Positions 31,640 through 62,238 of a stretch of 64,000 nucleotides of DNA are shown in pieces. Source of the DNA: Eledone cirrhosa (lineage: Eukaryota); the NCBI GenBank assembly GCA_964016885.1, contig OZ024745.1, positions 13,330,001-13,394,000 on the forward strand. Reading direction: 5' to 3'. The notes below the pieces were generated by a model. The model searched no databases, was not told the origin of the DNA, and saw only the letters and a list, made by a program, of their open reading frames with translations. The position numbers and the translations under genes were made by a program. The number at the start of each line of letters is the position of its first letter. Position 1 is the stretch's first letter.

Positions 31640-32530
31640 ATAGAAGAGCTTCTACAGGACTAGAACTGTAAACAGAAATAATAAAGCAAACGACACAGTA
31701 CATGTAGAAATATATTAGTTTAACGCTTGAAAAACAGGAAAAGAGTCTTAACATTTCGGACACTAGTCCTTCATCAGAAGATAGAATGGGAAATTTAAAA
31801 ATTACATATATAGTCTGTAAAGTAGCGAAGATATCTTACCTGGCGCGAGTGGGATGCTATTGCGGGCGGTGTGTTGTCAACGCCTGCAGTCTATCTTAAC
31901 CAATGTGGTGTTGACAATTAGCTACGTTAGAATTCAATAAACAGCAGGGTTTTGTCGTTTGATATTACTATTATAGGAAGTGGAGAGCAGCTGCCTGTAT
32001 CTATTAATGATGTTCAATAAATCTGAGGACTAGTTAGTCGGTGTCTAATAACGGAAGGAAGGATATATAAATGTTTACAGAGGAGTTTGTGTGATATTGG
32101 GGTCGGTGGTGGCGTGCCAAGAATACACATCATCAGTATATACAACCGGCGGCATAAAAGTCTAGCAGTATATCTGTTATTTATGTGTTTACTTCAATAT
32201 AATTCGCTTTCTCATTTATACTTAAAGACTCCATTTTCAGAGTATTTTCTCTCACTGGTTCAGTAAATAAAATATTCATGTAGGGAGTTCTGGCGTATGA
32301 TTTAACTAATTGTATAATGTTAGTCGACTAAAAACTGAAGACAATATGTCTGCTGTTTCTTAAATTTGTTCATTAGGTAAATTGCCTGTACTTCTTAATA
32401 CATGTGTACTTTAACACTTTAGGCTCGGTAGTGTCGACGAAGTGGTTTGGAAGTTACATACCACCACACGTTGTTACGTCCCACAATCATACGAATGAAG
32501 CAGTTCTAGTCCTGTAGGAGACATTTTTAT
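31640..32530 (-). mobile_element. PLE 3' remnant with hammerhead pseudo-LTR
   Basis: Minus-strand pLTR (31645-31800) is homologous to the 52200 and 55692 repeats. The terminal CAGTTCTAGTCCTGTAG motif occurs inverted at both ends, and both ends sit in (TG)/(CA) tracts. Confidence 0.65.
31746..31781 (-). ncRNA. minimal type I hammerhead ribozyme
   Basis: TCTT-CTGATGA-A-GGAC tagt GTCC-GAAA-TGTT-AAGA. Confidence 0.7.
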
Positions 32531-35083: not shown

Positions 35084-36650
35084 CTATGTTACCGTCATGT
35101 TGTCTGAACCGCTTTTTCGTCCTTTTAGTTCCCCCCAGTGTTGGTCTATCCTTTCACCTATGCTACCAGCTGTCTCGCCTATGTATGTTGTTGTCATGTT
35201 TCTGTAAGTACCCTCTGTACATCTTATGCTATAGACTACGTTTCTAGTTTTACAGTTTATCCGGGGGTTTACTTTACATATAATACATTTCCTATTAGTA
35301 CAGTGGGTTTTCTTAAAAGGGTATTTTTTGCTGATCAGAGATTTTATGGTAGTTCCTGGCTTTTCTACCACCTTAATATTTAAGTGGGTCTTTCTCAGGG
35401 CCTTTCTACACTGGTTAGCTAATTTCCCACCAGGCGTAGCGTCCACGAACATGACGCTCTGGTATCTCTGGTTGTCGTACCATGAGGTGGCTTTCCCTAT
35501 CTTATGTTTAGTCCTATCTAAGCTGTTCCATGATTTGCTACTGTATAGTGGGCAAATTCCTTTCATGTCCAGTTCTATGAGGGTCTTATACTTCTCCATG
35601 GCTCCTTCGTATACTCTGATTCTGTCTCTTTGGTTGTAGCCAGAGAACTGCATGCGGCTGATGAAGTGTTGGATGTGTCTTTCCATTTCTGTTGGATCGC
35701 ACATGCGGGACACGTTCTTCATCACTCGTACCAAATCTGCGATCAGAATATTAAACTTAGCACTAGTGGACATTGTCGAGTTTTTGAGTATCAGGTATTT
35801 GGAGGCCATGGGTTTAGCGTAGTGTGAGTGGAGAATTTGGGCCCTCTCGTCTATAGTGTTAATTCAGAGTTCCGTGTCTAATACAGGTAGTCTACTGTTA
35901 GGGTGTTTGGAAGGGAAGTCGATAGTTACAGTTATACTCTGGGGTATGGAATTAGCTATCTGCTGGATTCTTTCCATTGTGCTACATTCTAAATAATACT
36001 TGTTAGTACTCTCTTGTGGGGGTGTTCTTATTACTATATTAATGTCGTCTACGTAACGAGAGTACATGATGAGGTCTATGGAGCTCTCATCAAGGAGATC
36101 TTTGAGTCTCCTTTCCCGCCATACCATAAAAAGGTTGGCAACGTCACCAGCTAGGCTGACGCCAATGGCTGCTCCCTCATTTTGGGCGTAGATCTTCTCG
36201 TTGAATTTGAATATGAGGCCCTTTAGGGTAGTTTTAATACTAGCCCCTATTGCATGTGTGACCATTTTTCTTACCTGATCATTGTTTTTGGTGGTCCGTA
36301 TGGCTTTGGTCCACCCAATCCACTTTCCCATGGGAGTCGTTTTTGCCATTGAGGTTTTGGTGGGGGGTTCTACCTCTTATGGGTCTACTGGGGCAGAAAC
36401 GGCTAAGGTCATGGCTGTCTAGGTAGTCAGTGTCATAGGTAAGTCTAAGTAGGAGGCCCAGTTCGTCTGTGTCGACGTCGCAGAACTCCACCTCACTCTC
36501 ACTGATCATCTCCACACATTTTTCCACAGCAAAATCAGTGTTAATGGATGGGTATAGTGATACCACGTCCATACTGCCTATTATGCAGTTAGATAGGTTT
36601 TTGTTTTTGTTGCACTCATTGATTCTGTTGAGGAGGTCCTCTGTACTGTA
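35084..36650 (-). pseudogene. Penelope-like element RT + GIY-YIG endonuclease; 5'-truncated, with a frameshift and an in-frame stop
   Basis: Motifs SMDVVSLYPSI, YAQNEGAAIG..LAGDVANLFM, RYVDDI, LPVLD, then C-C..C linker and NVVYSIRC...YIGET...ERIDQH. Frameshift near 36350; TGA at 35864 in frame with the downstream ORF. Confidence 0.93.
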
Positions 36651-36655
36651 CAAAT

Positions 36656-37358
<703 letters not shown>

Positions 37359-37846
37359 TATACAATAAAGTATGTCCAATGAATCATTTGATAAGATATA
37401 TACACCATCTCCTCTCCCAATAAGCATAATCAACCACACAAAAAAACAATTAAACCAGGCTATAAGATTAAAAGGCACCTATGAAGAAATAATAGATAAA
37501 TAAACGACAGCCATCTATTCGCGATCAACAGCTATAGAATATTTACCCAGCATTTCAATAGCACGTGGAAACGTAATCTTGGTATGTTTATATACATTTT
37601 TTCTTCTAACTTTAATTTTATACCTAATTGTGTATGGTTGACGATATTGAAATGCTGGGTAAATATTCTATAGCTGTTGATCGCGAATAGATGGCTGTCG
37701 TTTATTTATCTATTATTTCTTCATAGGTGCCTTTTAATCTTATAGCCTGGTTTAATTGTATTTTTGTGTGGTTGATTATGCTGATTGGGAGAGGAGATGG
37801 TGTATATATCTTATCAAATGATTCTATGGACATACTTTATAGTATA
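37359..37846. repeat. long near-perfect inverted repeat (~200-bp arms)
   Basis: 37359-37560 is the reverse complement of 37645-37846 with few mismatches; bounded by (TA)n. Confidence 0.95.
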
Positions 37847-41382: not shown

Positions 41383-41740
41383 ATATACAATTATATCTAT
41401 ATAAATAGTAAGTAGGTAACGCAAACTGCACCAATGTATATATAAATATGCTCATATCTAATATGTAGGCATGTAAATATGGTAGAAAATACGAATTTTC
41501 CTGTAAATCGATAAAATGTTAAACATCTTTAATGGATTTCGGATCTAATTGAGCCCTCAACAGGAGTGTATATCATCCAAACAATTGCAAGAAGACATGT
41601 ATTTGATTTATATACCCATTACAGGGAAATCGATATTTTCTGGTATATTTACATGCCTATATATTAGATATGTTCATATTTTTGTACACATTGGTACAGT
41701 CTCGGTTACACACTCTGTATTTATACAGATATAATTTTAT
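41383..41740. repeat. diverged inverted repeat
   Basis: CATATCTAATATGTAGGCATGTAAATAT (~41453) vs ATATTTACATGCCTATATATTAGATATG (~41645); arms ~140 bp. Confidence 0.8.
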
Positions 41741-42350: not shown

Positions 42351-42576
42351 TAATAAAAACAATGAATAAAAACAAAGAACAAGTTCCTTATATTAAAAAA
42401 TTCATCATTTTACGATCGTTTCTAGGACATATATGTGTGTTGGTATGTATATCATATAGATCTATGTAAAAATATTACAAACTATCAGAAGAAATATACA
42501 TACCTTCACATATATATGCTGTCTTCAGAAATGATGACATTTGTTTATTGAAAAAAACCAACAAAGATTTAATATA

Positions 42577-42937
42577 AGGTAGAAACATGTGCTTATGCCA
42601 TAGTTCACTAAATAGAATCAGTCTGTTAGCTGGGATTTAAAAAACCCTCTGAATGGAAAAAGGATGAGTATTGACGTAGATGGGACAATCTTTGTTTGCC
42701 AGACCAATGTGTTACCAATACACCACCCATGCTTCCTTCCATTCAATTGGAAGCTATATAACCACAGCAGATATATATATGTATATAAATAGGTAACATA
42801 TTGGTCCGGCAAACCAGAGATGTCGGTTCGTGTCCCATGTACGCCAATACTCATACTTTTTTCCATTCAGAGGAGTTTTTAAAAAAAATCCCTGATTCTA
42901 TTTAGTCAAATACGGCGTAAGCACATGTTACTACCTA
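42577..42937. repeat. inverted pair of tRNA-headed elements
   Basis: 42577-42730 vs 42790-42937 are inverted. A-box-like TGGTGTATTGG on the minus arm; B-box-like GGTTCGTGTCC at ~42825. Confidence 0.7.
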
Positions 42938-43117
42938 ATTTTCAAATTCGCTAGCCCTTTCTAAACAAAGTCGGCTATGTGTCTCCCTATTTATATACAT
43001 ATATATATACCTGCTACATACACACACGCATTAACATCCATACCTACATACCTACATACATGCATGCATTAACATCCACACCTACATACATGTAATAACA
43101 TCCATCGGTCCATACAT

Positions 43118-44354: not shown

Positions 44355-45292
44355 GAGAAATTTAAAATATACGATCAGGAAAACGTACATATATACGACG
44401 TGTATATGTGTGCGTGCGCGTATGTGTGTGTATGTGTACGTGTCTATCTGTCAGTCTGTGCAGTGTGCGTATGTGTGTATCTGAGTCGTTCTGTGTGTGT
44501 CTATGAATGTATGTATGTATATATATGTATATGTATGGATGTGTATGTATGTATGTATGTATGTATGTATGTATGTATGTATGTATGTATGGGTTAAATG
44601 TATGTATGTATGTATGTATGTATGTATGTATGTATGTATGTATGTATGGGTTAAATGTTACAATGTATGTATGTATGTATGTATGTATGTATGGGTTAAA
44701 TGTTACAATGGCTGTGTTTTTACAATACTTTGAACACCAGCAATGGTTAGCAAGGGTTTCATATTATGGCCACCACCTCCCACTAAAAAAAAAAGGGTAA
44801 GGGGTTTCACTTATATGTCACAGCTTTTAGTAACTGATTGATCCCTTTCATTTTAACTTGTTACAAATTTTAGACTGCTCCCCACCCCGTTTTTCTCCCT
44901 TTTAATTGGTTGGTTAATTAATTTTTTTTTTTAGGAGGTGGAGGTCGTTTGTTTGTTGTAAATGAATGAAGGATCTCTCTCTCTTTGCCACCCCATCACA
45001 GCCATCTTTTTATTCAAACAGTTGCAATTCTTTCATTGTTTTCCACCGTCACGTGCCAATCCCTATCCCACCTTCCTCCCCCTGTTTTATTATGGATATT
45101 TTATTAATTCTTTGTAGGTGTGTATGAAGGTGTGTGTGTATGAAGATGGGTGTGTGGGGGAGAGAGAAAGAGAGACTGAACTGAAGGGAATCATTGTTAC
45201 TTTAACACACACTATTATATATAACATGGCTTATATATATATATATATAAATAAGTGGCTTCTACAAGACTAGAACTGTTTCATATTTTTTT

Positions 45293-45449
45293 GGGGACCA
45301 CTGCTGGGTAGTGTTCATCATACTAGTTGCAGTGGCCTGGGCTCGTCAGACGGTATGAGAGCCTAAACCTTTTTTAAAGGTTTTCGTACCGTCTGATGAG
45401 CTCAGGTTATCATAATTTGTCGAACGAGCACTATCTGGTTGTGGTCCTC
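45293..45449 (+). other. 72-bp ungapped G.U-rich hairpin module between (TA)n tracts
   Basis: Arms 45293-45364 and 45378-45449: 48 WC, 16 G.U, 4 A.C, 4 other pairs. Confidence 0.85.
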
Positions 45450-45568
45450 AGCGAAATGTGTATCACAGAGATATAAAGAAACCTAAATCAACGACATATG
45501 GCCTCCGATCTATTTAATGCTATATATATATATAAAATAAAATTTAAAAAACTACATGGCTGAATACA

Positions 45569-45830
45569 ATAAATGTAGTCTGAGTTTTTCGAGTATTAAT
45601 AGTGGCATTCGATTCGTTTGCAATTATGCAAACAAGCCTCATTTTTAAAGCCATTTTTGAGCTGTACTGATGAAGGGTGATACCCAGAAACATTAGTGTC
45701 TGCAGTTCTGTTTACATGCCAACACAAGAGCAAGAATGAAGGGTTCATTCTACTGACATGGCTTTAAAAATGAGGCTTGTGCAATCGAGTCGAGTGTTGT
45801 TAGTGTTCGAGGGACTCAGATTACATTTAT
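45569..45830 (+). other. G.U-rich hairpin module enclosing a hammerhead
   Basis: Arms 45569-45654 and 45758-45830; inner 23 bp perfect, outer stem has 11 G.U and 0 A.C. Confidence 0.85.
45659..45708 (+). ncRNA. type I hammerhead ribozyme
   Basis: Stem I GAGCTGTA/TGCAGTTC, CTGATGA, stem II GGGT-gat-ACCC, GAAA, stem III ACAT-ta-GTGT, GUC cleavage triplet ending at 45700. Confidence 0.8.
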
Positions 45831-46346
45831 ATATATATATATTATTATTTACACACACCCTCTACCAATGAATATTTGGCATTGTGTCTCGTTAAAAGGA
45901 ATTTATATTTATTAACTTAATGAAAGCAATAACGATGATTATTATATTGTTAGTATTATGAAATTTTTCTAAATAAAATTTCCGGATCAGCTAAGGTAGA
46001 ATTCATTCATTGCCAACTGGCTGGTGCAAATTGAAAATGTTGAGTTATCTGCCCTTGATATTTTTGTGTCGGTGGAGGAATGGCTCGTAAAGAATGGGTT
46101 AACAGGTCAGCCATTTCTTCTTTTTTCTTCTTCTTACTTAGCCAGAGTAATTTGTTACTTATATATGTGTAATATTGATGTAAATAGATTTATATTGATT
46201 TAATTAAGTAGCTGTCATTGGAGTCAACTCTATATATCGCTGTGAACTGTAGATTGAATATAATATATAGTGGGTCAAGTATGAAATTTGTAGAAAAAAA
46301 AACATTTCCTCAGGTTTCATACTTCACGAACCAATATATATATATA

Positions 46347-46410
<64 letters not shown>

Positions 46411-46671
46411 TTGTATGTATATATATATATATATTGTGTGTATATATATATGTATATATATTGTATGTATATATGTATATATATATTGTATGTATATATA
46501 TGTATATATATTGTATGTATATATATATATATATATTGTATGTATATGTATATGTATATATATATTGTATGTATATATATATATATATATATATTGTATG
46601 TATATATATATATATGGTATGTATATATATATATATATATTGTATGTATATATATATGTATGTATATATAT

Positions 46672-46826
46672 AAGGTGGGCGAAGACAACTGAGAAACGAA
46701 CGAAACATGGGACAGTCTCTTCTCGTCAGTTGACCTCTAGAGGTAATGCACCGAAATCAGGACCTCCAGAGGTCGACTGATGGGGGGGGACTGTCCTCTG
46801 TTTCGTCCGTCTTAGCCCCACCTTTT
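46672..46826 (+). other. G.U-rich hairpin module after TA-rich microsatellite
   Basis: Core arms 46697-46744 and 46762-46809: 7 G.U, 2 A.C, 1 other; outer AAGGTGGG/CCCACCTT. Confidence 0.85.
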
Positions 46827-46899
46827 TAAAAATTAATTTTATAGATCTTAACCGCGTGGGACATTCTTTCACACACACACACACACATATATATATATA

Positions 46900-47256
46900 G
46901 TTATTCTTTTACTGTGGCCTTGCTGGAGCAGTGCCTTCTTGGATTTAGCTGAACACATAGACCCCCCCCCCCTACTTATTTTGTCAATCTCTTTATGGCG
47001 AACTGCTAAGTTATAGGACATAAACAGTAAATGTAAACACAGACGTTGACGCACATGTAGCATCATGTACGTGTGTTGTGTGGATGTATATAAACATAAA
47101 CAGCAGGTTTTCATACAGTGTCTGTCTACCAATTTACCCTTACAAGCCTTTGGTCTACCGGAAGCCGAAGTAAGAGACACTGGCCCTTGTGCCATGCAGT
47201 GACACAGTGGGAGTGAACCTGGTTGCAAAATGAATTTCTTAACAACACATCCATGC
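46900..47256 (-). mobile_element. octopus-type tRNA-derived SINE
   Basis: Minus strand GGATGTGTTGTTAAGAA..GGTTCACTCCCACTG..GGCACAAGGGCCAGTGTCTC..ACCAAAGGCTTGTAAGGGTAAATTGGTAGAC; a related fragment lies at ~53650-53790. Confidence 0.7.
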
Positions 47257-47297
47257 TTATATTTATACACATGTGTGTGTATAAATATATATATATA

Positions 47298-47836
47298 CGA
47301 CTAAACTGGCAACCCCACCAAGGTTTCTTGGTGAGGAGGGTGACTTTGGACATCCTGCAGGACTAAAAACAAAACCTGTCAAAGGGCAAAGGAGCTCTTA
47401 AAAGTCAATGGCCATCCAAAATCACCGGGAGAGATGACCCCTTAGCCTTTGTCAAGGCAGAATTCTAGGAGAAGGAAAACTCTGATATAACACCTGCAAC
47501 CCTGATGGTATCCAATGATGTTGACTTGTTCTTCTTTTTGGTAAATATCATCTTGGTTAAGAGAGTGGGACTGGCTTTGTGCAGTGCCTTTGCTCACTAT
47601 AAAAGCTTCACGGCACAGGCATTGCTTTGTATCTGGAGATCTCTCTGCACTTGTCCTCACATGGTACCATGGGCCCAGCACTATGTGTCAATAATTGTCA
47701 CAGGTGTAGTGTTTGTACCAGAGTTTTCAAGTCGCTGGCTGGACTAAAAGTCACACTCGTTCAGCGCTTCGGTAGGGGTTCTCCTACATGGATATAAAGT
47801 AGTGGCCGTACTCGAAAACGAGTTGGCAGCCACCAT
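47298..47836 (+). mobile_element. non-autonomous RTE derivative, copy 1 (5'-truncated)
   Basis: Near-identical to 48586-49125; followed by a long (TATG)-type tail. Confidence 0.85.
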
Positions 47837-47951
47837 ATGTATGTATATGTGTATATGTATGTATATGTATATGTGTATGTATGTGTATGTATATGTGTAT
47901 GTATGTGTATGTGTATGTATGTATATATGTGTATATGTATGTATGTATATG

Positions 47952-47983
<32 letters not shown>

Positions 47984-48231
47984 TGTGTATGTATGTATGT
48001 ATGTGTATATGTATGTATGTATATATGTATATGTATATATATGTATGTATGTGTATGTGTATGTATGTGTATGTGTGTGTATATGTATGTATGTATGTAT
48101 ATATGTATGTATGTATATGTATATGTATGTGTGTATGTATGTATATATGTATGTATGTATGTATATATGTATGTATGTGTATATGTATGTATGTGTATAT
48201 GTATGTGTATGTATATGTATATATATATGCT

Positions 48232-48495
48232 GCTTTGTGCAGTGCCTTTGCTCACTATAAAAGCTTCACAGCACAGGCATTGCTTTATATCTGGAGATCT
48301 CTCTGCACTGGTCGTCACATGGTACCATGGGCCCAGCACTATGTGTCAATAATTGTCACAAGTGTAGTGTTTGTACCAGAGTTTTCAAGTCGCTGGCTGG
48401 ACTAAAAAGTCACATTCGTTCAGCGCATTGGTAGGGGTTCTCCTACATGGATATAAAGTAGTGGCCGTACTCGAAAACGAGTTGGCAGCCACCAT
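48232..48495 (+). mobile_element. non-autonomous RTE derivative, copy 2 (3' half)
   Basis: Same 3' end ..GAGTTGGCAGCCACCAT(GTAT)n; encodes remnant CSVCTRVFKSLAGLKSHIRS (RTE C2H2 finger). Confidence 0.85.
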
Positions 48496-48519
48496 GTATG
48501 TATGTATGTATATATGTCA

Positions 48520-48597
48520 GGTCACCACTTGGTGCTACTGGTAACATGTATCCCAGTACAACCTGTCTGATGGTCGGGTCGTTGGCGACTAAACTGG
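48520..48597 (+). ncRNA. candidate HDV-like ribozyme
   Basis: P1 GGTCA/TGGTC, P2 CCAGT/ACTGG, P3 ACA/TGA (one mismatch), L3 ACCTGTC, P1.1 CC/GG, P4 TCG-ttgg-CGA, J4/2 CTAA. Confidence 0.6.
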
Positions 48598-49125
48598 CAA
48601 CCCCACTAAGGTTTCTTGGTGAGGAGGGTGACTTTGGACATCCTGCAGGACTAAAAACAAAACCTGTCAAAGGGCAAAGGAGCTCTTAAGAGTCAATGGC
48701 CATCCAAAATCACCGGGAGAGATGACCCCTTAGCCTTTGTCAAGGCAGAATTCTAGGAGAAGGAAAACTCTGATATAACACCTGCAACCCTGATGGTATC
48801 CAATCATGTTGACTTGTTCTTCTTTTTGGTAAATATCATCTTGGTTAAGAGAGTGGGACTGGCTTTGTGCAGTGCCTTTGCTCACTATAAAAGCTTCACG
48901 GCACAGGCATTGCTTTGTATCTGGAGATCTCTCTGCACTTGTCATTACATGGTACCATGGGCCCAGCACTATGTGTCAATAATTGTCACAAGTGTAGTGT
49001 TTGTACCAGAGTTTTCAAGTTGCTGGCTGGACTAAAAAGTCACACTCGTTCAGCGTATCGGTAGGGGTTCTCCTACATGGTTATAAAGTAGTGGCCGTAC
49101 TCGAAAACGAGTTGGCAGCCACCAT
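48520..49125 (+). mobile_element. non-autonomous RTE derivative, copy 3 (longest, ~606 bp)
   Basis: RTE-like 5' region (CTAGGAGAAGGAAAACTCTG) joined to the C2H2-encoding 3' end and a (TATG)n tail. Confidence 0.8.
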
Positions 49126-49629
49126 GTATGTATGTATGCATGTATGCATGTATGTATGTATATGTATGTACGTACGTACGTACATACATGTGCATGTATG
49201 TATGTATATGTATGTACGTACGTACGTACATATGTATATATGTATGTATATATGTATGTATGTATATATATGTATATGTATGTATGTATGTCAGTCTGTG
49301 AAGTTGTTTAAGTAAATACAGTGAAAGACCAACCTAAAGTAGCAGATATCCAACTAAATATCCAATTAAAACGTCTTCAGACATTAACTAATCTCTCCTA
49401 CGTCTCGTGTACTCTGCACGTGACTGTTCTCTTTATTAATTTAAGCTCAGCACAAATTCCACCGGAAAATATCTTAGATATCTGCTGCAAAAAAAAAAAA
49501 TTGAATTGTTCTTATGATTTCCTTTCCATTAACTGTTAATCACTATCACTCTTCAAACTCTTATGGAATTAGAATATGTTTCTTCTTTTACTAATACATA
49601 ACTTTCTATATAATATACTATAAAATACT

Positions 49630-52377: not shown

Positions 52378-52621
52378 TAAATATATATATATATGGGATA
52401 ACAAGTTATCGTTATAGGTAATCCAGTTAGAGGTTGTGAGTACACTGCGTCGTGGATAGTTTTAACGTACCGCTTTGTTTGACTCAACAAGATGCTTCCA
52501 TAGTTATGCAGCGAGTTCGCGGTAATTTTTATGCAGGTTATACTTGGAGTAATAATAGTTAAAGAATGAAGAGTAACATGGGCGGCTGTACAATAGGGGC
52601 TTTATTTAAAGTACTGACAAT

Positions 52622-53101
52622 TTAAAGTACCGATAATTTTGACCAGCTAATCTTATATTCTAGGTTTTTGTCCTTAAGCTGCCAGATTTTATTGGCGAGC
52701 GTCGTAGAGTTCTCCATTTCACGGTTCTTCATGGAGTGTCTGTGGACATACCACCTTTTCTTGAACTCCCCAGCCGTGGAACCTATGTAGTGCCAAGTAG
52801 AGTTGCCTGAATTTACAGTACACAGGTATACCATACTCGAATCCAGGCATCTATTCCGTAGTGGGCACTTATCCGGTAGGTGGTAATTACAATTTGAGGT
52901 TTTACTTTGTGCAAGTTCATCGTTGCGGTTTTGTAAGTTGTTGTGGGTGGGTTGTGATTTAGGCCTATTAATGTTTTGTTGTGATGCGTTCTGATGCGTT
53001 TGTGTATTGTTTTGATTATACGATATTTTATTATTGATGTTATTGTTTTGATTATACGCTATTTTTCTATATAAGTCTTGCCTCGAGTGAATTACTTTCA
53101 A
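52622..53101 (-). pseudogene. PLE GIY-YIG endonuclease fragment
   Basis: CNY..CPL..CLDSSMVYLCTV...YIGSTAGEFKKRWYVHRHS...TTLANKIWQLK; bracketed by a ~67-bp inverted repeat (52557/53201). Confidence 0.88.
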
Positions 53102-53278
53102 ATCTACGTACTCTGATGTGTTGACCAGAGGTAAATAATGTATTGGAGATCGAATAACGCAAGTGATTAACGAACTCTAGATTCACCTGATCAACAAAAC
53201 AATTGTCAGTACTTTAAATAAAGCCCTTATTGTACAGCCAACCATGTTACTCTACATTCTTTAACTATATATATATAT

Positions 53279-53493
53279 ATATAAAGAAAAAAAGGATGAA
53301 ATCGAAAATGCAACTGGAGTCTTATTTTTCTCACATCTGAGATGTGAGAAAAACCACAGACCCTCCATCTCAACTCTACTTTTGAAAAGCAAGCAGAATA
53401 ACTGCGAAACCGGTAAAGGAACCAAATAAATGTATATATTTTTTAAAAAATAAGACTCCAGTTGCATTTTCGATTTCATCTTTTTTTCTTTAT
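53279..53493. repeat. short fold-back element with ~53-bp terminal inverted repeats
   Basis: GATGAAATCGAAAATGCAACTGGAGTCTTATTTTT vs AAAAATAAGACTCCAGTTGCATTTTCGATTTCATC; internal palindrome TTTTTCTCACATCT-G-AGATGTGAGAAAAA. Confidence 0.85.
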
Positions 53494-54127
53494 ACTTTCA
53501 CTCGTGTAGGACACCTCGGTTATTTTTCATTTTGTAAAAACACCTCACTTTCTAATATATATATATATATATATAGAAAGAAAGAGAGAAAGGTGGGGAA
53601 GGGGAAGAAAATAGATTGGGAAGAAATATGTGAGGTAATACATATTATTTCTTTTTATTCTTTTAATGGTTTCAATTATTGGGTTGTGGCCATACTGGAT
53701 CACAACCATCAGAGGTTTTTATCGATCATATCGACTATTGTAATTATTTCTTTCTGGTACACATTTAATCCATATTTATATTGTTCAATTCGCCAAGATA
53801 CGTTATTTGAAACAACACTGGTTTTACACCGGTAAATATAAGTTACTTAACAGAAGTTAAGGGCCGAAACACTCACCTGAGAGGGATTTCTTGACTGAAG
53901 ACCTCTGTCCAGCTCTCCTGAGAGTTCCTTACCATTTAATCCATCTTTATATTTATCTATTCGTTAAGCCACGCCTTTTGATACAACACCGGTTTTACAC
54001 TGGTAAATATAAACATAGAAATAGCTATAGATGTACTCATACACCCGCCTCACACATGTATACGTATATATACATACATATATATGAATACACACACACA
54101 CACACACACACATACATATATACATAC

Positions 54128-55930: not shown

Positions 55931-55972
55931 GAAAGGCTTCTACAGGACTATATTAAATGTTTGTACTCGACA

Positions 55973-56019
<47 letters not shown>

Positions 56020-56022
<3 letters not shown>

Positions 56023-57170
56023 AATGAGGAGATATTTATAAACCATGCACAATATTATATTAAGGCTCTTTCTGAATCTGGTTATGAACAATCAATTAAC
56101 TACATACCAAAATGCCATAACACAGCAATTCACCATAATAAACTTAACACTAGAACTAGAAATACCTTAGCATATAGCCAGATTGGCCGGAATTTTAGCA
56201 GTAACAGCACCGAGACAGGGAAGTTTAATGGTGGCAGCGGCCTGCTCCCCACTCCAAGTAGCAAACTAAAAATCAACCCTAGAATAGGAATGAGAAATGG
56301 GATGACAAGTAACAAATCCCCAGGTAATAATAACCCTAGAAAGGCCCCTACCAACTCCACTGGAACCCCTAGAAGGAATAGACCTAGAAATATCACCTGG
56401 TTTATTCTCATCTAATCTAGCCACTAATATCCCTAAACGCTTCTTCTCTATCCTATCTAACCCCCCCCCCCCCCCCCCCAACCATAGATATTACAAACTC
56501 TTTAATAAAAATAACATTAAAATCTCATTCTCCACAACACCTAACCTAGCTAGCCACATCGCATTCAGTAACCATCATAAACTAAGACAGTATAACTCCC
56601 ACACCGCGGTACCACCACCCTATCAAATACACCACGCCACTACACCAATAATTACTCTAGTAGCACACCTCCCCCATCTAATCCTTCTAGCACTGACCAA
56701 CCGCTTAGGTTAAACTACCCTACTCTCACTAACCGCAGAAGCAACTGCAACTGCCGTTACCCTAATGCATGCCCATTAAATGGACACTGCCTGACACCCA
56801 ACATAGGTGCACGGTTAAAACTGCTTCGAATACCAGCTCTTATATCGGGTCTACCTCTAACCCTTTTAAGGTACGCTATAACGCGCACTCTTTTTCCTTC
56901 CCGGACCCTAGCAACAGATGTTCGACATCTCTAGCTAGGCTCATTAAAAACCTTAAATTAAGCAACATTGAACACTCACTAAAATGGGATATTGTGGCTA
57001 GGGCCCAACCGTTCAATGGACGAAGAAAATCTTGTGATCTCTGTATTACCGAAGCATATTACATAACTCTATCACGACCTCTACCGATTAACGATAGAAC
57101 GGAGGTAACTATAACCTGTCAACATCGAAGCGCTAATTCCTTCGCCAATAGAATATTTGACCCAACATAG
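56020..57170 (+). pseudogene. PLE RT thumb/linker + GIY-YIG endonuclease, frameshifted
   Basis: NEEIF..YYIKALSESGY, RNITWF, KLFNKNNIKISFS, CNCRYPNACPL, YIGSTSNPFKVRYNAH, KWDIV..CDLCITE..NDRTE..CQH. Confidence 0.9.
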
Positions 57171-58238: not shown

Positions 58239-58765
58239 ATATAGAATAAGGAAAAGCGAAGCAGTTTCAGATGTTCAAGTCATTTAATAATAATTGTTTC
58301 TACTTTCGGCACAAGGCCAGCAATTACCCAATGTGTTTCTGGTACTTTATTTTAACGACCCCGTAAGGATGAAAGGCAAAGTTAACCTCGGCGGGATAAT
58401 AATAATGCTGTGATATATATTTCAATGGCGACAGTGGCCACACTGTTCCGTGCGCCAGTGCCGCCACATCGTCAGACAGCTTGTTACATAATAAGGTTAT
58501 GTTTCCGAGGCAATCCAAATTGAATCGACATGGGAACGGACGAAGTGTGTGCTTTCGGGTTCTTCATCCGTTCCCTTGTCCCATGTCGATTCAATTTGGA
58601 TTGCCTCGGAAACATAACCTTATTATGTAACAAGCTGTCTGGCGATGTCGTGGCACTGGCGCACGGAACAGTGTGGCCACTGTCGCCATTAAAATATATA
58701 TCACAGCATTATTATTAAAAGACTTGAACATCTGAAACTACTTCGGTTTTCCTTATTTTATATAT
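58239..58765. repeat. near-perfect fold-back element interrupted by a SINE
   Basis: 58239-58294 plus 58398-58545 form the reverse complement of ~58561-58765; loop ~16 nt. Confidence 0.93.
58295..58397 (-). mobile_element. truncated SINE insertion with AATAATAAT target duplication
   Basis: Same family as 24438; AATAATAAT at 58286-58294 and 58398-58406. Confidence 0.8.
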
Positions 58766-58852
58766 ATGTAATAAACAACATAAGATAAGTATTTCATTTA
58801 CCAGTGGTTTCTTGAAGACAGATATTTATATCTGTCTTCAGTCGTCAGAATG

Positions 58853-59007
<155 letters not shown>

Positions 59008-59129
59008 CGAGATAGAAACGTATAAGACAAACATACCTTATTTGTAAACATAAAGATGTATTGTCATCGTAAGTTAGATATTAAAGAACAGTTTTAAATG
59101 ACACAAGTACTGCATGGCTGCGTTGGTCT

Positions 59130-62100
59130 CAGTTATCCAATGTACTGGGGGTGTATGTCAATTTACAGTTGACAGTAATCACAGTTATCCAATGTCCTGG
59201 TGGTGTATGTCAATGTACAGTTGACAGTAGTCACAGTTATCCAATTTCCTGGTGGTGTATGTCAATGTATAGTTGACAGTAGTCACAGTTGTCCAATGTA
59301 CTGGTGGTGTATGTCAATGTATAGTTGACAGTAGTCACAGTTATCCAATGTCCTGGTGGTGTATGTCAATGTATAGTTGACAGTAGTCACAGTTATCCAA
59401 TGTACTGGTGGTGTATGTCAATGTATAGTTGACAGTAGTTACAGTTATCCAATGTACTGGTGGTGTATGTCAATGTATAGTTGACAGTAGTTACAGTTAT
59501 CCAATGTCCTGGTGGTGTATGTCAATGTATAGTTGACAGTAGTCACAGTTATCCAATGTACTGGTGGTGTATGTCAATGTATAGTTGACAGTAGTCACAG
59601 TTATCCAATGTACTGGTGGTGTATGTCAATGTACAGTTGACAGTACTCACAGTTATCCAATGTACTGGTGGTGTATGTCAATGTATAGTTGACAGTAGTC
59701 ACAGTTATCAAATGTCCTGGTGGTGTATGTCAATGTACAGTTGACAGTAGTCACAGTTATCCAATGTACTGGTGGTGTATGTCAATGTATAGTTGACAGT
59801 AGTCACAGTTATCCAATGTACTGGTGGTGTATGTCAATGTATAGTTGACAGTAGTTATAGTTATCCAATGGACTGGTGGTGTATGTCAATGTACAGTTGA
59901 CAGTAGTCACAGTTATCCAATGTACTGGTGGTGTATGTCAATGTACAGTTGACAGTAGTCACAGTTATCCAATGTACTGGTGGTGTATGTCAATGTATAG
60001 TTGACAGTGGTCACAGTTATCCAATGTACTGGTGGTGTATGTCAATGTACAGTTGACAGTAGTCACAGTTATCCAATGTACTGGTGGTGTATGTCAATGT
60101 ATAGTTGACAGTGGTCACAGTTATCCAATGTACTGGTGGTGTATGTCAATGTATAGTTGACAGTAGTCACAGTTATCCAATGTACTGGTGGTGTATGTCA
60201 ATGTATAGTTGACAGTGGTCACAGTTATCCAATGTACTGGTGGTGTATGTCAATGTATAGTTGACAGTAGTCACAGTTATCCAATGTACTGGTGGTGTAT
60301 GTCAATGTATAGTTGACAGTGGTCACAGTTATCCAATGTACTGGTGGTGTATGTCAATGTATAGTTGACAGTGGTCACAGTTATCCAATGTACTGGTGGT
60401 GTATGTCAATGTATAGTTGACAGTAGTCACAGTTATCCAATGTACTGGTGGTGTATGTCAATGTATAGTTGACAGTGGTCACAGTTATCCAATGTACTGG
60501 TGGTGTATGTCAATGTATAGTTGACAGTAGTCACAGTTATCCAATGTACTGGTGGTGTATGTCAATGTATAGTTGCCAGTAGTCACAGTTATACAATGTA
60601 CTGGCGATGTATGTCAATGTACAGTTGACAGTAGTCACAGTTATCCAATGTACTGGTGGTGTATGTCAATGTACAGTTGACAGTAGTCACAGTTATCCAA
60701 TGTACTGGTGGTGTATGTCAATGTATAGTTGACAGTAGTCACAGTTATACAATGTACTGGCGATGTATGTCAATGTACAGTTGACAGTAGTCACAGTTAT
60801 CCAATGTACTGGTGGTGTATGTCAATTTATAGTTGACAGTAGTCACAGTTATCCAATGTACTGGTGGTGTATGTCAATGTATAGTTGACAGTGGTCACAG
60901 TTATCCAATGTACTGGTGGTGTATGTCAATGTATAGTTGACAGTAGTCACAGTTATCCAATGTACTGGTGGTGTATGTCAATGTATAGTTGACAGTGGTC
61001 ACAGTTATCCAATGTACTGGTGGTGTATGTCAATGTATAGTTGACAGTAGTCACAGTTATCCAATGTACTGGTGGTGTATATCAATATACAGTTGACAGT
61101 AGTCACAGTTATCCAATGTACTGGTGGTGTATGTCAATGTATAGTTGACAGTAGTCACAGTTATACAATGTACTGGCGATGTGTGTCAATGTACAGTTGA
61201 CAGTAGTCACAGTTATCCAATGTGCTGGTGGTGTATGTCAATGTATAGTTGACAGTGGTCACAGTTATCCAATGTACTGGTGGTGTATGTCAATGTATAG
61301 TTGACAGTGGTCACAGTTATCCAATGTACTGGTGGTGTATGTCAATGTATAGTTGACAGTAGTCACAGTTATCCAATGTACTGGTGGTGTATGTCAATGT
61401 ATAGTTGACAGTAGTCACAGTTATCCAATGTACTGGTGGTGTATGTCAATGTATAGTTGACAGTAGTCACAGTTATACAATGTACTGGCGATGTATGTCA
61501 ATGTACAGTTGACAGTAGTCACAGTTATCCAATGTACTGGTGGTGTATGTCAATGTATAGTTGACAGTAGTCACAGTTATACAATGTACTGGCGATGTAT
61601 GTCAATGTATAGTTGACAGTAGTCACAGTTATCCAATGTACTGGTGGTGTATGTCAATGTACAGTTGACAGTAGTCACAGTTATACAATGTACTGGCGAT
61701 GTATGTCAATGTATAGTTGACAGTAGTCACAGTTATACAATGTACTGGTGGTGTATGTCAATGTACAGTTGACAGTAGTCACAGTTATCCAATGTACTGG
61801 TGGTGTATGTCAATGTACAGTTGACAGTAGTCACAGTTATCCAATGTACTGGTGCTGTATGTCAATGTACAGTTGACAGTAGTCACAGTTATCCAATGTA
61901 CTGGTGGTGTATGTCAATGTATAGTTGACAGTAGTCACAGTTATCCAATGTACTGGTGGTGTATGTCAATGTACAGTTGACAGTGGTCACAGTTATCCAA
62001 TGTACTGGTGGTGTATGTCAATGTATAGTTGACAGTAGTCACAGTTATCCAATGTACTGGTGGTGTATGTCAATGTATAGTTGACAGTAGTCACAGTTAT

Positions 62101-62238
62101 CCAATGTACTGGTGGTGTATGTCAATGTACAGTTGACAGTAGTCACAGTTATCCAATGTACTGGTGGTGTATGTCAATGTATAGTTGACAGTAGTCACAG
62201 TTATTCAATGTGCTGGCGATGTGTGTCCGTGTATAGTT
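59130..62238. repeat. 52-bp tandem satellite, ~60 monomers
   Basis: CACAGTTATCCAATGTACTGGTGGTGTATGTCAATGTA(T/C)AGTTGACAGT(A/G)GT; period 52 (59181, 59233). Confidence 0.99.

Follow-up and report, generated by a model that had tools for sequence, protein, structure and literature searches.

Insertions of Penelope-like elements (PLEs) often have an inverted, 5'-truncated copy adjoining their 5' end (PMC8557442, PMC3846280) and a short tail, often at one end, described as 30-40 bp (PMC8557442) or 31 bp (PMC3846280) long. An insertion bias towards (TA)n is described for Neptune, Hydra and Naiad elements, and members of the Hydra clade combine hammerhead ribozymes and a CxCX5C linker with insertion into (TA)n (PMC8557442). 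The consensus given for metazoan PLE hammerheads comprises a U-rich 5' flank, CUGANGAH, a G10.1-C11.1 pair and a palindromic helix III (PMC4209133). For an anole PLE, reverse transcription is reported to begin 111-118 nt into the ORF and the hammerhead to cut at +26, figures that by subtraction place the start of reverse transcription about 85-92 nt past the cut; uncut RNA is reported to be the main template (PMC11167929). Animal retrozymes are described as tandem repeats of 150-450 bp with mostly canonical hammerheads, the transcripts of which are cut to unit-length RNAs that circularise (PMC7229834).

The locus described here lies in an octopus (Eledone cirrhosa) genome, in a 64-kb window (the whole stretch of DNA analysed) of microsatellite-rich animal DNA with satellites at both ends. 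Its centre is a type I hammerhead on the + strand (core at 45667) inside the 73-pair stem of a 262-nt unit (45569-45830) with unequal arms, a one-sided extension of ~34 nt and (TA)n flanks. We propose, at a probability of roughly 0.6, that the unit is the stub of a Penelope-like retrotransposon, formed by two 5'-truncated 3' ends placed head to head in (TA)n. Descent from a PLE in some form is very probable when this reading is taken together with two others, in which the stem matters as RNA or was edited as RNA. PLE identity is what we infer for a unit that itself has no attached PLE ORF. The sequence-only reading had proposed a non-autonomous element akin to retrozymes, atypical in its fold-back and probably mobilised by PLEs; it is partly supported, in that the link to PLEs gains support but the rest of the proposal is not needed.

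The hammerhead (45659-45708, +) was recognized by motif search, by folding and by comparison with the PLE consensus in the supplement of PMC4209133. Stem I (45659-45666/45701-45708) has 8 pairs, as previously noted, but contains two G·U pairs rather than three. The GUC site (45698-45700, predicted cut after C45700) is where it had been placed earlier, and the CUGAUGA core lies at 45667-45673. Stem II (GGGU/ACCC, 45675-45685) includes G10.1-C11.1, GAAA lies at 45687-45690, and helix III (45690-45699) is a 10-nt palindrome. CUGAUGA and GAAA are thus both present, but the core is not fully canonical: one extra A (45674) directly follows A9, where an extra nucleotide is a PLE hallmark, and a second (45686) lies between C11.1 and G12, so that one unpaired A flanks stem II on either side. 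Save for the A ahead of G12, the sequence has every feature of a type I hammerhead (CUGANGA, GAAA, UH and three helices) and fits the metazoan PLE consensus (PMC4209133). A strict type I descriptor gave a single match in the window; over 300 block-wise dinucleotide shuffles of its 35.7-kb non-satellite part it gave none. A 9-nt direct repeat (45670-45678/45736-45744), seen by eye and perhaps fortuitous, links the core and the start of stem II with the small hairpin described below.

Cutting by the monomer is predicted to be poor. The modelled monomer fold pairs CUGAUG of the core with the helix III sequence (pair probability about 1.0, against 0.00 for the active helix III), which makes the active fold 6.2 kcal/mol worse in a nearest-neighbour model that leaves out tertiary contacts. 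The helix III palindrome forms a self-duplex of -8.8 kcal/mol, and its palindromic nature may mean that the hammerhead was made for action as a dimer. A hammerhead-model search had been suggested as a check on the ribozyme; Rfam gives no call on it, with 0 matches over the window at gathering score, the window's other PLE-type hammerheads included, and 25 weak matches at E<=10 in 45200-46900, none of them a hammerhead and none overlapping the unit.

The predicted folding energy of the unit is -119.4 kcal/mol (z -15), a value reached by 0 of 200 shuffles, and that of its minus strand is -85.6 kcal/mol; GC content is 38%. The closing stem, previously put at ~75 bp, joins 45569-45654 to 45758-45830 through 73 pairs, comprising 61 Watson-Crick pairs, 11 G·U and one U·U. 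Its left arm (45569-45654, -) corresponds to a shorter, inverted copy of the same putative 3' end, begins downstream of the hammerhead, and has 13 extra nucleotides with a small palindrome at 45616-45633. The longer, forward copy (45655-45830, +), a putative PLE 3' end or pseudo-LTR piece, contains the hammerhead, a small perfect hairpin (45733-45751, +) and the right arm (45758-45830, +), in which the inner 23 pairs are perfect and the outer 50 hold all 11 G·U. The small hairpin is the GAATGAA-ggg-TTCATTC motif already recognized from the sequence, and has 8 bp and a GGG loop. The two copies measure 86 nt (inverted) and 176 nt (forward), the predicted cut site lies 127 nt ahead of the (TA)n end of the unit, a distance comparable with that between cut and start of reverse transcription in the anole PLE, and there is no visible decay in the loop, the hammerhead core or the small hairpin. 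Placement of the unit between (TA)n runs was accurate on the right, where the arm adjoins the run at 45828-45842, but on the left the arm continues for ~34 nt (45535-45568, -) before the run at 45521-45534, which is common to the unit and the neighbouring fold-back. Measured from 45572, the gap to the left microsatellite is 37 nt, compared with 0 on the right. The extension is probably element sequence rather than flank, and is a candidate PLE tail. By eye, 8 nt of it are complementary to the arm at its inner end, which may again be chance. Both ends of the unit fall within (TA)n, so a target-site duplication is unreadable. A coding role was considered and set aside, in line with the earlier view that the unit has no ORF: neither strand has a convincing frame, the + strand has no ATG-started frame above about 25 codons, and the longest stop-free stretches span 30 codons on + and 55 on -.

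These features can be assembled into a sequence of events in which a PLE protein of Neptune or Hydra type would have nicked the microsatellite and used uncut element RNA as template two times over. The element's 3' end would thereby likely have entered the (TA)n run as two 5'-truncated copies, head to head. Sequence common to both copies would give the 73-pair stem, and the additional 5' part of the longer copy, with the hammerhead, would give the loop. The short copy may have halted before the hammerhead and started at an outer start site, leaving the tail. The hammerhead would then be an inheritance from the element's pseudo-LTR, and the use of mostly uncut RNA as template, as reported for the anole PLE, accounts for its being whole. 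The unit shows the traits described for inverted PLE insertions: a shorter inverted copy at the 5' end of the forward copy, a one-sided extension of ~34 nt, a PLE-type hammerhead with its sense towards the outer end, and a (TA)n target. The fold-back that had been called atypical thus matches an inverted, 5'-truncated PLE insertion with a one-sided tail, as described in PMC8557442 and PMC3846280.

Other PLE debris is present in the window. A relaxed hammerhead descriptor, defined after the sites had been seen, found 6 sites in 35.7 kb compared with a mean of 0.095 in 200 shuffles, and the unit is therefore one among several PLE-type hammerheads. An intact-looking type I hammerhead at 58799-58854 (-) has a 13-bp stem II with C·A at its base, a palindromic helix III and a GUA site, and lies 32 nt before (TA)n. 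A minimal PLE-type family has three copies, at 31777 (-), 52258 (+) and 55750 (+), about 90-120 nt ahead of microsatellites; the scan used for the unit places two minimal hammerheads 88 and 116 nt ahead of a microsatellite. A young head-to-head fold-back (58397-58717; wider span 58245-58757) has 139-pair arms that are 97% alike and a hammerhead near each outer end, one intact (58475, -, with U·U at the base of stem II) and the other decayed; its left outer part (58245-58294) seems to have been split off by a ~100-nt insertion. An unpaired base on either side of stem II occurs in the minus-strand hammerheads at 58848 and 58475 as well, giving three cases in the window with the unit.

Coding remnants accompany these hammerheads. 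A fragment with reverse transcriptase and GIY-YIG endonuclease (35084-36743, -), broken by frameshifts and a (TA)n run, has a CX4CxxC linker, as in Neptune PLEs, and its best match, at 60% identity, is a protein named from Octopus vulgaris, one of 11 hits that came from 388 candidates. Two related GIY-YIG-like frames lie in 52555-53268 and 55957-57170 (40% identity over 60 aa); in the latter, a CxCX5C linker of Hydra type lies at about 56743-56770, and the former region is a 67-pair inverted repeat with the frame as its loop. For the frame at 52622-53176 there was no relevant Pfam match, no match to Neptune-type proteins and no homolog found, and its putative GIY-YIG affinity comes from likeness to the frame at 56766, together with an Atlas lead scored 0.95 in which 12% of members have GIY-YIG. 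Among the remaining repeats, the satellites at 1-23455 and 59126-62238, which are 95% alike, consist of a 47-bp unit in about 500 copies and a 52-bp unit in about 60, respectively, and a tandem array at 47300-49130 has a ~1.3-kb unit ending in (TATG)n, in two to three copies that are 99% alike in part.

The terminal inverted repeats, the TA that can be read on either side of the stem, and the short, non-coding character of the unit would also suit a MITE-like DNA fold-back element with a TA target site that had captured a PLE hammerhead fragment. This is very improbable: such elements have inverted repeats with symmetric ends at a target-site duplication, and here, although a TA can be read on either side, the left side continues for ~34 nt and the internal ends are unequal; the same layout recurs around PLE-type coding and hammerhead fragments in the window; and a DNA element offers no cause for the strand-specific wobble described below.

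No tandem array over the unit and no second copy of its hammerhead region was found in the window, and the unit arms have no second match elsewhere in the 64 kb. The defining arrangement of a retrozyme, tandem copies or a second hammerhead of the same family, is thus not present at this locus. Its length (262 nt), 38% GC, strong self-pairing, type I hammerhead and mollusc host nevertheless agree with what PMC7229834 describes for animal non-LTR retrozymes, and the unit could be read as a solitary monomer of a classical retrozyme making circular RNA. We regard this as the most remote of the readings considered, as no unit-length RNA can be excised when there is no tandem or even partial second hammerhead, the hammerhead is of PLE type, and the unit owes its ends to the inverted repeat rather than to cut sites. 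Beyond the window, the full hammerhead pattern including helix III gave 0 matches in viral contigs and 0 in metagenome contigs, and the unit had no match in the supplement text of PMC8557442. Eight sequencing runs were listed as sharing words with 45250-46300, none of them an RNA run; four contain more than half of the words, and these four come from one study and one organism, while a small share in a second organism is given no weight as evidence.

A single trait of the unit is left unexplained by a PLE stub, namely the one-sided G·U pattern of its stem. Mismatches on the + strand comprise 11 G·U, no A·C and one transversion (p 0.001, a value inflated by the choice of a unit that folds well), a composition that is unlike neutral decay. 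The wobbles are confined to the outer 50 pairs, the inner 23 being free of them (p 0.013), the wobble G occurs in both arms (3 and 8), and the favoured strand is the hammerhead strand. CpG decay was rejected as their source, the wobble U being followed by G in 0 of 11 cases, and masked skews around the unit are small. Long alternating microsatellites at 44500-49300 are nearly all TG-type on +, in the same sense as the wobble bias; this match may be chance, since such repeats amplify by slippage.

The pattern recurs in two adjacent hairpins. Fold-back A (45277-45465, +) has a decayed hammerhead at 45393, in which stem II is long and helix III is palindromic as at 58475, and an inverted copy of it that has decayed further; only short extensions and one (TA)n run set fold-back A apart from the unit. 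Fold-back B (46696-46810, +; wider span 46672-46830) has its left end at (TA)n and about 45 nt extra on the right, and no hammerhead was found in it by descriptor. G·U to A·C counts on the + strand are 19:4 in A, which repeats the one-sided effect of the unit, and 7:2 in B, and pooling both with the unit gives 37:6. In A, comparison with the hammerhead consensus indicates that changes on + went in two directions, C>T and A>G. Elsewhere the bias is absent: six other fold-backs of the window total 12:14, and those without it include 37360-37845 (arms differing by 5 transversions only, in 201 pairs), 41385-41740, 42568-42945 and 53280-53494, most with one end at (TA)n. A nearby three-copy repeat has strand counts of 6:3, with few changes and no clear bias.

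A wider comparison was drawn from at least 110 metagenome loci (L001-L110) obtained with a looser hammerhead pattern. Among the matches listed, most belong to one minimal-hammerhead family that has nothing but the core in common with the unit, and the unit arms resemble none of these loci outside it. Their minimal hammerhead, rather than their ORFs, suggests that they are PLEs. Fold-back arms of 30 or more pairs occur in 70 of the 110 listed, of which 69 fold-backs remain after trimming and removal of duplicates; in two of these 69 (L009 and L045) the hammerhead lies wholly in the loop, the same layout as in the unit, and stem II has an unpaired base at each side in 1 of 134 listed metagenome matches. 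Of the comparison fold-backs among the matches listed, 28 have at least 6 transitions, and none of these 28 is one-sided (lowest p 0.11); within the same listed set G·U and A·C are symmetric, both overall (326:334) and by hammerhead strand (151:131). The view of the stem as an RNA-level feature, implicit in the sequence-only reading, accordingly gains some support from the 11:0 ratio, which ordinary decaying fold-backs lack. One-sided wobble in inverted insertions of hammerhead PLEs was not found described in a narrow literature search.

Octopuses show exceptionally strong hyper-editing of double-stranded RNA, with depletion of upstream G as its mark, according to PMC5625713. Hyper-editing of the hairpin RNA by ADAR (A-to-I), written back to the genome, would turn A-U pairs into G·U, and in the outer stem U or A does stand upstream of 10 of 11 wobble G compared with 14 of 25 unedited A (p 0.059). 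The signature is absent, however, when three hairpins are taken together, with upstream G at 7 of 37 sites compared with 22 of 87 (p 0.5); the unit alone gives 1 of 11 compared with 8 of 40. The A-rich inner 23 pairs are also unaltered and at least two changes in fold-back A polarise as C>T, and we hold an editing origin to be a slim prospect.

Selection for RNA pairing would let only G·U changes through. The PLE-born fold-back may accordingly matter now as + strand RNA, either copied whole in trans by PLE protein, as a non-autonomous hairpin element that would refine the sequence-only proposal, or kept as a hairpin in a host transcript. The 11:0 ratio with G in both arms and one transversion, the favouring of the hammerhead strand in the unit and the repeated bias in its neighbours (19:4, 7:2; 37:6 pooled), the symmetry of the comparison fold-backs among the matches listed, the mixed C>T and A>G directions in fold-back A and the lack of a clear bias in the three-copy repeat (6:3, few changes) are all consistent with this. 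We nonetheless consider it unlikely, if worth serious attention: the 64 kb contain one copy of the unit, which retains the one-sided tail of a primary PLE insertion; the p value of a unit picked for folding well is inflated; and three different neighbours are biased on the same strand, which indicates the locus rather than the element, although three independent insertions would fall on one strand one time in four. A bolder version, which we think improbable, has the head-to-head insertion turned into its own replicon. This would be a hairpin RNA of ~260 nt whose loop contains a self-silenced hammerhead and whose stem has been loosened by RNA-selected G·U, and proteins of Neptune or Hydra type would copy it whole into (TA)n. 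Were this so, the unit and its two G·U-biased neighbours would form an octopus family of fold-back ribozyme retroelements, and a route would exist from PLE debris to viroid-like RNAs, distinct from tandem retrozymes. If the unit is instead a PLE stub, the one-sided G·U would be a later, local + strand effect, arising through selection inside a host transcript or through strand-biased mutation.

As a PLE stub, the unit is ordinary genomic debris and one more case of a known PLE insertion product, as well as a modestly useful octopus example of a hammerhead subtype with an unpaired base on either side of stem II and a long palindromic helix III. The one-sided wobble across three adjacent hairpins is the part worth pursuing. 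If it reflects selection, PLE insertion products would be kept or spread as structured RNAs, and a connection of PLE pseudo-LTRs with non-autonomous ribozyme RNAs would become open to testing, in an animal with heavy editing of double-stranded RNA. The metagenome loci L001-L110, rich in head-to-head fold-backs, are a ready set for the study of inverted PLE junctions.

Hairpin-RNA loci, or inverted-duplication small-RNA genes, have long stems in which G·U pairs form on the strand that is transcribed. The unit likewise has a long stem with G·U on one strand, here seen in DNA. For molluscs, a survey reports no dedicated endo-siRNA pathway (PMC12479628). With the animal non-LTR retrozymes of PMC7229834 the unit shares size range, low GC, self-pairing and a type I hammerhead, and the axolotl retrozyme hammerhead HHR_Amex2 is described there with a mismatch at the base of helix II; unlike those retrozymes, which are tandem repeats, the unit occurs once in the 64 kb, has its ends fixed by the inverted repeat and carries a hammerhead that is not canonical. 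No description of this octopus unit was found in the literature searched, which covered running text; a similar hammerhead may be drawn in the figures or further supplement of PMC4209133. The PLE-type hammerheads of PMC4209133 resemble that of the unit in the U-rich 5' flank, the extra nucleotide after A9, G10.1-C11.1, the palindromic helix III and the weak predicted monomer activity; the unit differs in its longer stem I (8 bp), its shorter stem II (4 bp), a helix III that is a 10-nt palindrome, and the extra A before G12. The closest likeness is to insertions of endonuclease-bearing PLEs (Neptune, Hydra and Penelope/Poseidon), as described in PMC8557442, PMC3846280 and PMC11167929: the unit likewise has unequal head-to-head arms with their 3' ends outward, an extension of ~34 nt at one end, a (TA)n target and a hammerhead about 130 nt before the 3' end, and departs from them in that no ORF was found with it and in stem mismatches that are G·U on one strand only.
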